Positions 38,262 through 38,785 of a stretch of 44,743 nucleotides of DNA are shown here, piece after piece. The first letter of the stretch is position 1; each line of letters starts with the position of its first letter. Made by a program: the position numbers and the translations under genes. Source of the stretch: Promethearchaeota archaeon (lineage in GTDB: Archaea > Asgardarchaeota > Lokiarchaeia > Sigyniarchaeales > SOKP01); contig JAHPZI010000004.1 in NCBI GenBank assembly GCA_019058295.1, forward strand, positions 1-44,743. Reading direction: 5' to 3'. A model generated the notes under the pieces. That model saw nothing but the letters and a program-made list of their open reading frames with translations. It was not told the origin of the DNA and did not search any database.

Positions 38262-38369
38262 TTAATTCTTTTTTCTTTTAACTTTATAGTTAAGAATAAT
38301 GAAATTAAAATAATAATTTTTTTGAAGTTAAATGTAGAAATTAATTAAAGTCTATAAAGAAAAATAAAA

Positions 38370-38557
38370 TGGTCCCCTCTCCCGGCCTCGTTCCGCCGTC
38401 GTTCCGTTTTGGACCGACGCATCCGGGGGCCGCTCGGTTTTTGCTGGCTGACGTAACTTCATAGGTACAAAACCTTAGTACGCGATTTCATCTACAGCCG
38501 AGCGCTCTACCAGTCTGAGCTTACCTCTTTAAAGGGTATCCCTTTAAATAAGAGGGG
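38370..38557 (-). tRNA. trnY: tRNA-Tyr(GTA) with three introns: 8/9 (38522-38549), 37/38 (38439-38491), 55/56 (38391-38420); CCA encoded
   Basis: Spliced product CCCCTCT-TA-GCTC-AGACTGGTA-GAGC-G-CTCGG-CTGTAGA-CCGAG-CGGCC-CCCGG-ATCGAGG-CCGGG-AGAGGGG-A-CCA. All four stems pair perfectly. C1:G72/A73 is the archaeal/eukaryotic Tyr identity. BHB-like motifs are present at all three junctions. Confidence 0.92.
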
Positions 38558-38599
38558 CTATTTATAGAGGGGCTTTTTTATAATTATCTAGTTCTTTAA

Positions 38600-38607
38600 T
38601 TTATATA
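38600..38607 (-). promoter_or_regulatory. Putative TATA box of the tRNA-Tyr gene
   Basis: TATATAAA on the minus strand, preceded by an A-rich stretch, about 43 nt upstream of C1. The AT-rich context lowers confidence. Confidence 0.45.
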
Positions 38608-38785
38608 TTTTTTACGATTTTAAGCAAGAATCAATGAAGTGTAAAAAAAAATCTTTTTTTAAATAGTTTTTTGGTAATAAAAAAATGAAAAATTAGTATA
38701 ATTTATGAATTCCAAACCTTTTTATAAAATTATTAAAATCTTTTTATTAAATTATAAAAATATTTATATTTGAGATGATAGAAAT

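Follow-up and report, generated by a model that had tools for sequence, protein, structure and literature searches.

A leader copy of the 5' acceptor strand accompanies the 8/9 intron of an Asgard tRNA-Tyr gene and is a probable stand-in strand during its splicing

On its minus strand, the window (i.e., the whole 44.7-kb stretch of DNA that was analyzed) carries a 188-nt tRNA-Tyr(GTA) gene at 38557 to 38370, including an encoded CCA, which is interrupted by three introns: one of 28 nt at 8/9, one of 53 nt at 37/38, and one of 30 nt at 55/56. The unspliced locus was matched by neither ARAGORN nor Rfam when these were run on the raw window. In silico excision of 38549 to 38522, 38491 to 38439, and 38420 to 38391 leaves 77 nt, which ARAGORN folds into a tRNA-Tyr(GTA) with U8, A9, C1-G72, and A73, and with position 1 at 38557; the combination of C1-G72 and A73 is the archaeal tRNA-Tyr type. 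The T loop obtained after splicing (ATCGAGG) is the same as that of the G019 ortholog (L003), where it is intronless. All four exons are collinear and lie within the 188 nt, and the gene is thus neither split nor permuted. From promoter to terminator, the following features can be told apart.

38600 to 38619, minus strand: promoter, with a BRE-like element CGTAAAAAA followed by the TATA box TATATAAA (38607 to 38600); the motif is conserved, and its promoter role is suggested by archaeal promoter architecture.
38575 to 38579, minus strand: predicted transcription start zone, some 23 to 27 nt past the TATA box, placed by the usual archaeal spacing.
38566 to 38574, minus strand: leader copy AGCCCCTCT, the core of which (CCCCTCT, 38572 to 38566) equals tRNA positions 1 to 7 and is complementary to the 3' acceptor strand.
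38558 to 38565, minus strand: A+T-rich spacer ATAAATAG between copy and tRNA, TATA-like and without a counterpart in orthologs.
38550 to 38557, minus strand: exon 1, tRNA positions 1 to 8 (CCCCTCTT), in which C3-C6 (38555 to 38552) supply the 5' side of the central BHB helix.
38522 to 38549, minus strand: intron 1, 28 nt, at 8/9, with a 9-bp hairpin and with GAGG (38527 to 38524) as the 3' strand of the central helix; found by BHB search, and its removal is needed for the cloverleaf.
38492 to 38521, minus strand: exon 2, positions 9 to 37, with the D arm and the 5' half of the anticodon arm (anticodon GTA), from the fold of the spliced product.
38439 to 38491, minus strand: intron 2, 53 nt, at the canonical 37/38 site, with a relaxed BHB and with sequence blocks conserved across genera.
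38421 to 38438, minus strand: exon 3, positions 38 to 55, from the fold of the spliced product.
38391 to 38420, minus strand: intron 3, 30 nt, at 55/56 in the T loop, with a relaxed BHB, from the fold of the spliced product.
38370 to 38390, minus strand: exon 4, positions 56 to 76, with the 3' acceptor strand AGAGGGG (38380 to 38374), discriminator A (38373), and CCA (38372 to 38370), from sequence and fold.
38360 to 38369, minus strand: T-rich stretch TTTTATTTTT, a probable terminator.

Among the BHB candidates of the region, the 8/9 intron ranks first. Its central helix consists of 4/4 pairs between C3-C6 and the intron sequence GAGG, its inner hairpin is 9 bp long, and its two 3-nt bulges (TTA and TAA) lie on opposite strands, so that it conforms to the motif of a BHB intron; with C2-G10 alone as the outer helix on the exon side, it takes the form HBh'. 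Cuts after the second base of the bulge on both strands restore the full tRNA. An earlier reading of the locus, made from the letters alone (hereafter, the sequence-only reading), had pointed out that the 8/9 BHB needs C3-C6 and is therefore in conflict with the acceptor stem, and the BHB search bears this out: because both structures need the same bases, splice motif and acceptor stem compete.

Two observations on the introns themselves may be recorded here. Compared with the G007 ortholog (L002), intron 1 shows only two differences, at 38536 and 38540, which together make up the loop-closing G-C pair; the changes (G to A and C to A) open this pair without compensation, and a metagenomic contig has the G007 state. 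In intron 2 (window 38439 to 38491, minus strand; loci L003 to L020), the blocks ATCGCGTA..AGG, ..ATGA.., and ..ACGTCAGC are kept across several genera while the length varies. Conserved blocks of this kind are unusual for a spacer-like intron, and the canonical tRNA-Tyr intron RNA may have a function of its own, judging from its sequence.

Directly upstream of the gene lies the feature with which this analysis is mainly concerned. As the sequence-only reading had it, AGCCCCTCT occurs twice on the minus strand, at 38574 to 38566 and at 38559 to 38551, the second time covering tRNA positions 1 to 7 together with the two leader bases before them (-2 and -1). The window contains no third match, and shuffles of the sequence lead one to expect 0.14. 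The leader segment CCCCTCT, identical to the 5' acceptor strand, stands 8 nt upstream of position 1, within the distance of about 10 nt that we used to define such a copy. A whole-genome scan for exact 7-mers that occur as a direct repeat and again as a downstream reverse complement returned 26 hits, of which only this locus was tRNA-like.

The TATA-like box TATATAAA at 38607 to 38600, from which transcription had been proposed to start upstream of the first copy, turned out to belong to a longer motif, AATCGTAAAAAATATAT(A/T)AATT, that is present upstream of most of the orthologous tRNA-Tyr genes examined, in several genera. In two relatives (G002 and G006), the same motif stands 24 nt before position 1 of an intronless tRNA-Tyr 5' end. 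The center of an archaeal TATA box usually lies near -26/-27, and transcription would then start at about 38579 to 38575, just upstream of the leader copy. Since the conserved promoter motif and this spacing both place the start upstream of the copy, the copy falls inside the predicted transcript, and the tRNA-Tyr transcript very probably begins with a spare copy of the first seven tRNA bases.

Before any role is assigned to this copy, more trivial readings of the repeat have to be weighed. It could be a chance repeat, an element of a second promoter, or an att-type integration scar, and we consider this group of explanations very unlikely. With 0.14 expected matches in the window and with the same layout recurring at two other tRNAs (see below), the repeat is real and not a product of chance. 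A second promoter might be seen in TATAAATA (38565 to 38558), which lies between the copies and resembles an archaeal TATA box; however, a start directed by this inner box would land inside intron 1, so that exon 1 would be missing, and the spacer is not conserved, the other layouts having 0 to 8 nt of unrelated sequence. As for a scar, archaeal integrative elements can duplicate parts of tRNA genes, but no element is located between the repeats here, and integration leaves duplicates that lie kilobases apart and mostly comprise the 3' portion of the tRNA gene.

Another way to read the repeat is to take the upstream copy as the true 5' exon; the intron removed would then be larger and would comprise the spacer and the downstream copy in addition to the 28 nt. 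The upstream copy does stand where the tRNA 5' end lay ancestrally (see below), and GAGG could pair with its CCTC too. Against this, the 5' bulge would have no inner helix beside it; cutting by the rule would put A at position 8, where U is nearly universal, or else add a base ahead of the D stem; and the only BHB candidate from 38565 removes 27 nt and leaves no tRNA, whereas the downstream copy yields a perfect motif and an exact cloverleaf. With the BHB geometry failing, we ruled out the upstream copy as a real exon, and a larger intron of this kind is highly improbable.

If the copy is transcribed, it could influence which of the two competing helices forms. The tRNA-Tyr precursor with a leader starting at 38577 was folded with RNAfold, with controls in which the copy was changed to A7 or the leader was removed. 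With the copy present, the leader CCCCUCU is predicted to pair with AGAGGGG (38380 to 38374) with p 0.99, and the 8/9 splice helix between C3-C6 and the intron reaches p 0.96; in both controls, the acceptor stem has p 1.0 and the splice helix p 0. Expressed as energy, the 8/9 splice helix can be forced at 0.0 kcal/mol when the copy is present and at 6.7 kcal/mol when it is absent; for introns 2 and 3 of this gene, forcing the central helix takes 2.4 to 2.9 kcal/mol. This predicted switch agrees with the proposal of the sequence-only reading that the leader CCCCTCT sequesters AGAGGGG and thereby frees the 5' strand for the BHB. The central helices of introns 2 and 3 are given only p 0.01 to 0.02 by RNAfold, though both introns must be spliced, so a low predicted occupancy is no proof of a block. 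Furthermore, after removal of the early intron, the two-dimensional energy model still puts the leader copy on the 3' strand (0.71 to 0.99); since the model favors the copy even after splicing, strand exchange must rest on tertiary folding or enzymes.

The host (genome G000; 3.2 Mb, 30.7% G+C, 79% complete) is an Asgard archaeon from a family whose tRNA genes are heavily interrupted, and a matching picture emerges from a census of Asgard introns (bioRxiv 10.64898/2026.10.13.758758). Two further tRNA genes of this genome carry an early intron, and in all three genes the central helix of the first intron uses bases of the 5' acceptor strand (positions 3 to 6 in Tyr, 4 to 7 in Val, and 5 to 8 in Cys). 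In the tRNA-Val(GAC) gene (contig C14), the intron lies at 9/10, and the leader contains GGGCGTG 6 nt upstream of the 5' strand GGGCGCG, with a single mismatch that still pairs as G.U. In the tRNA-Cys gene (contig C28), the intron lies at 10/11, and GCCAGC directly abuts GCCAGCG. Both precursors show the same predicted folding switch as tRNA-Tyr. Overall, a leader copy was found in 3/3 early-intron tRNAs of the host and in 0/25 of its other tRNAs, none of which has more than 4 nt in common between leader and 5' strand. A genome-wide scan for a strong BHB closed by an acceptor stem yielded 9150 raw hits, nearly all of them coding, and, after open reading frame (ORF) masking and a G+C filter, no early-intron tRNA beyond Tyr, Val, and Cys; the scan covered strong BHBs in a genome that is 79% complete, and early introns with a relaxed BHB could have escaped it. 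A separate intron-removal pipeline (GC islands, top 14 BHB candidates, ARAGORN) served as a source of the other tRNA loci only, and it missed the tRNA-Tyr gene because intron 3 has a relaxed BHB.

Several other tRNA loci of the host genome deserve mention in their own right. A second interrupted tRNA gene is located in the window at 199 to 331 on the plus strand (5' strand GGGGACT, 3' strand AGTTCCC); the tRNA-Glu model that ARAGORN proposes for it is implausible, at least two introns appear to lie in its D arm and anticodon region, and neither an early intron nor a leader copy was found in it. The leaders of tRNA-Pro TGG (G000:C2:59216) and GGG (G000:C21:216760) contain C/T-rich stretches (CCTCCTC and CCTCTC) directly upstream of the 5' strand GGGAGGG; both stretches are complements of GGGAGGG, not copies. 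Finally, G000:C22:30303-33335 holds a dense array of 27 intronless tRNA genes that together serve all 20 amino acids; one of them is a second tRNA-Tyr(GTA), of archaeal type (C1-G72) but richer in A+U. The G+C content is 44% in the array and 30% in its flanks. The array contrasts with the heavily interrupted host tRNA genes and is similar to tRNA arrays found in viruses or mobile elements.

Whether the association of early intron and leader copy holds in relatives was examined on genes chosen by an early-insertion pattern and not by the copy; the pattern was sought in 161 genomes of the class for tRNA-Cys and tRNA-Tyr and in 135 genomes of the family for tRNA-Val. False positives of the pattern scan in coding sequences were dropped on inspection (G155, G033, and G029 for Cys, most of the Tyr-pattern hits, and five Val-pattern hits). 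The remaining early-intron genes have a leader copy in 17/17 cases, 12 of them tRNA-Cys (eleven from the pattern search and one found before), 3 tRNA-Val, and 2 tRNA-Tyr. The sequence-only reading had named relatives with the intron and without the duplicate as the case that would count against it; among these 17 genes of three tRNA families, no such case was found. The copies come in at least six layouts, from a 6-mer abutting the gene to 7- and 8-mers with spacers of 2, 4, 5, 6, or 8 nt, and the introns that they accompany are unrelated. Given that the relatives are not independent of each other, the 17 genes amount to about six independent events.

For tRNA-Tyr, the 8/9 intron is shared with G007 only, the locus of which is 98% identical and the copy of which (AACCCCTCT) keeps the 7-nt core; all other tRNA-Tyr orthologs have neither the 8/9 intron nor the copy. 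The Tyr intron and copy are thus known from one event only (G000 and G007), and they have been inherited together because they lie within 50 nt of each other. Across the three families, dozens of intronless orthologs (Tyr, Val, and Cys) have no copy. The converse scan, done for tRNA-Cys only in the 161 genomes, found one copy beside an intronless gene, which is the sole exception to the co-occurrence: in G051 (L097), GCCAGT stands 7 nt upstream of a gene with the 5' strand GCCAGTG. This copy may be a relic of intron loss or may have preceded intron gain. With no intron lacking a copy and one copy lacking an intron, the asymmetry is the one that a requirement predicts.

Two peculiarities were noted among these relatives. 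In three of the tRNA-Cys early introns, L061 and L077 (G003 and G001) and L073 (G023), cutting by the standard rule, behind the second base of the bulge and with GCGT/GCGC as the central helix, would leave two extra bases in the D-arm region, owing either to irregular bulges or to two nested introns. The leader of the tRNA-Val(GAC) gene L032 (G014) contains, about 20 nt upstream, a copy of the gene's own anticodon stem-loop (CGTCCGCTTGACGTG), a partial duplicate of a different kind.

The strongest competitor of a functional copy is a neutral by-product, in which the copy is a mere leftover of the intron-gain event, either what remains of the old 5' end or a tandem duplicate, and plays no part in processing. 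Much about the origin of the copy fits such a view. In G002 and G006, the intronless tRNA-Tyr 5' end follows directly behind the same promoter and occupies the place of the G000 copy, and some 43 nt (spacer, new 5' strand, T, and intron) look as if inserted behind it; positionally, therefore, the copy is the old 5' strand. Moreover, two of the nine identical bases in G000 are leader bases (AG) that are unable to pair with the 3' end, which argues for an origin by duplication and not for pairing selection alone. A clean 15-nt tandem duplication was rejected, as the six bases that follow the two 9-mers differ at every position.

The history of the alleles also accords with a by-product. One metagenomic allele shows zero differences over 38419 to 38521 and has 38522 to 38578 replaced by 16 nt, with neither intron nor copy, so that the two features come and go together; another metagenomic contig carries a G007-like allele with both, and the contigs X2 and X3 cover only parts of the locus, from more distant relatives. 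In addition, the derived alleles are distributed incongruently, the Tyr form being found in G000 and G007 and the Val form in G000, G002, and G006, as would fit a linked cassette that moves by recombination. Near-identical alleles with and without both features, together with this incongruence, indicate that intron and copy act as one linked unit that is quickly gained, lost, or exchanged.

The sequence conservation of the copies, however, is hard to reconcile with neutrality, since a neutral G+C-rich 6- to 8-mer in a 31% G+C genome should decay, and the copies remain unchanged while their flanks have diverged by 21% to more than 50%. Between the Val genes of G000 and G002, the upstream flank is 21% and the intron 41% diverged, with 0/7 changes in the copy; between the Cys genes of G000 and G004, the flank is about 40% diverged, with 0/6 changes; and between the Cys genes of G003 and G001, the upstream region cannot be aligned at all, with 0/7 changes. 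The joint neutral probability of these unchanged copies is about 1e-4 as a rough product of per-site survival over the three contrasts, a crude figure because the rates come from short flanks. In one case the copy tracks a change in the acceptor: in the tRNA-Cys gene of G058, in which acceptor pair 6-67 has changed (GCCAGTG/CACTGGC), the leader copy likewise reads GCCAGTG, and the single copy difference seen in tRNA-Val preserves pairing. Nor does a by-product account for the 0/17 early-intron genes without a copy. Since an origin by duplication is compatible with later selection, the by-product explanation stands only in the form that denies any function, and in that form we consider it unlikely.

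Every computable part of the sequence-only reading held up. We therefore favor, as the probable explanation, that the upstream CCCCTCT is a selected stand-in acceptor strand in the tRNA-Tyr 5' leader; the basis for this is the anatomy of the locus, the conserved promoter, the predicted folding, the association in three tRNA families, the conservation, and one covariation. Transcription from the conserved promoter would begin a few bases before the copy. Within the precursor, this copy would pair with the 3' acceptor strand AGAGGGG and leave the real 5' strand free, so that C3-C6 could pair with GAGG of the intron and form the predicted BHB, to be cut at 8/9 by the splicing endonuclease. After excision, the real 5' strand, deprived of its intron partner, would displace the copy on the 3' strand, presumably aided by the tertiary folding of the tRNA, and the leader would then be removed by RNase P. 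Since the real 5' strand would be held by the BHB until the intron is cut, splicing at 8/9 would have to precede 5' maturation. As to its history, the copy would have arisen by duplication of the 5' end of the gene, would stand at the ancestral site of that end, and would have been kept by selection since.

Candidate components of the machinery for these steps are encoded in the host genome. Two EndA paralogs (PF01974) of about 200 amino acids are present (C1:121142-121372 and C26:58847-59095), the number and size of which fit an (alpha-beta)2 endonuclease, and non-canonical introns are cut by endonucleases of the (alpha-beta)2 and epsilon2 types (PMC5829648). The genome also encodes an archaeal RNase P RNA.

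More tentatively, and at somewhat less than even confidence, we speculate that the leader copy is a general, selected requirement for archaeal tRNA introns that borrow the acceptor strand, enforcing the order of splicing first and RNase P second, and that duplication of the 5' end is a permissive step that lets an intron settle near the acceptor stem.

Non-canonical BHB introns of archaeal tRNA genes are reportedly covered by Marck and Grosjean (2003) and by the SPLITS/SPLITSX surveys. The 8/9 intron itself is an ordinary member of this class: its central helix measures 4 bp, each of its two bulges 3 nt, the predicted cuts fall behind the second base of the bulge, and it shares its gene with other introns (PMC4090602, PMC4033280). 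In descriptions of such introns, however, the motif is built from exon and intron alone, with no leader segment that duplicates the acceptor strand as found here. In the split tRNAs of Nanoarchaeum equitans and Caldivirga and the permuted tRNAs of Cyanidioschyzon merolae, sequence from outside the tRNA likewise helps to build the endonuclease substrate and is later discarded (PMC4090602, PMC4033280). There, the leader pairs with the trailer inside the BHB and is removed by the endonuclease, whereas here it would pair with the 3' acceptor strand, outside the BHB, and would be removed by RNase P.

Mutually exclusive helices are familiar from attenuators, from the expression platforms of riboswitches, and from the pairing of leader and 16S rRNA in ribosome assembly. 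The logic would be the same, with a temporary partner letting another helix form and the final structure arising after processing; those systems, however, act on mRNA leaders or rRNA, whereas the temporary partner proposed here is an exact copy of the final one. We know of no attenuator-type system of mutually exclusive helices that gates tRNA splicing. Partial tRNA duplicates that stem from integrating elements or recombination, as in the model for Caldiarchaeum tRNA-Thr (PMC3293823), are likewise short, located beside the gene, and tied to recent intron gain. The copies described here differ from them in that no mobile element lies between the repeats and in that they measure 6 to 9 nt, always start from position 1, lie inside the predicted transcript, and are conserved. 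A leader copy of the acceptor strand is mentioned neither in PMC4090602, PMC4033280, and PMC3293823 nor in the Asgard census (bioRxiv 10.64898/2026.10.13.758758) or the further full-text literature searched; within these sources, the statement of the sequence-only reading that a strand-swap helper of this kind has not been described holds.

Introns in or near the acceptor stem pose an old and little-discussed problem, in that the splice motif claims bases for which the strongest tRNA helix also competes. A stand-in strand encoded in cis would solve this conflict and at the same time fix the order of two maturation steps, with no extra protein. In practical terms, the copy offers an annotation signature for tRNA genes that standard tools miss, such as the present one, which escapes both ARAGORN and Rfam. 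The layout is also relevant to the question of how the many recent Asgard tRNA introns arise, since among near-identical alleles the copy and the intron appear jointly. If the general form of the proposal is true, leader copies would serve in processing and would at the same time mark the way in which acceptor-adjacent introns are gained.
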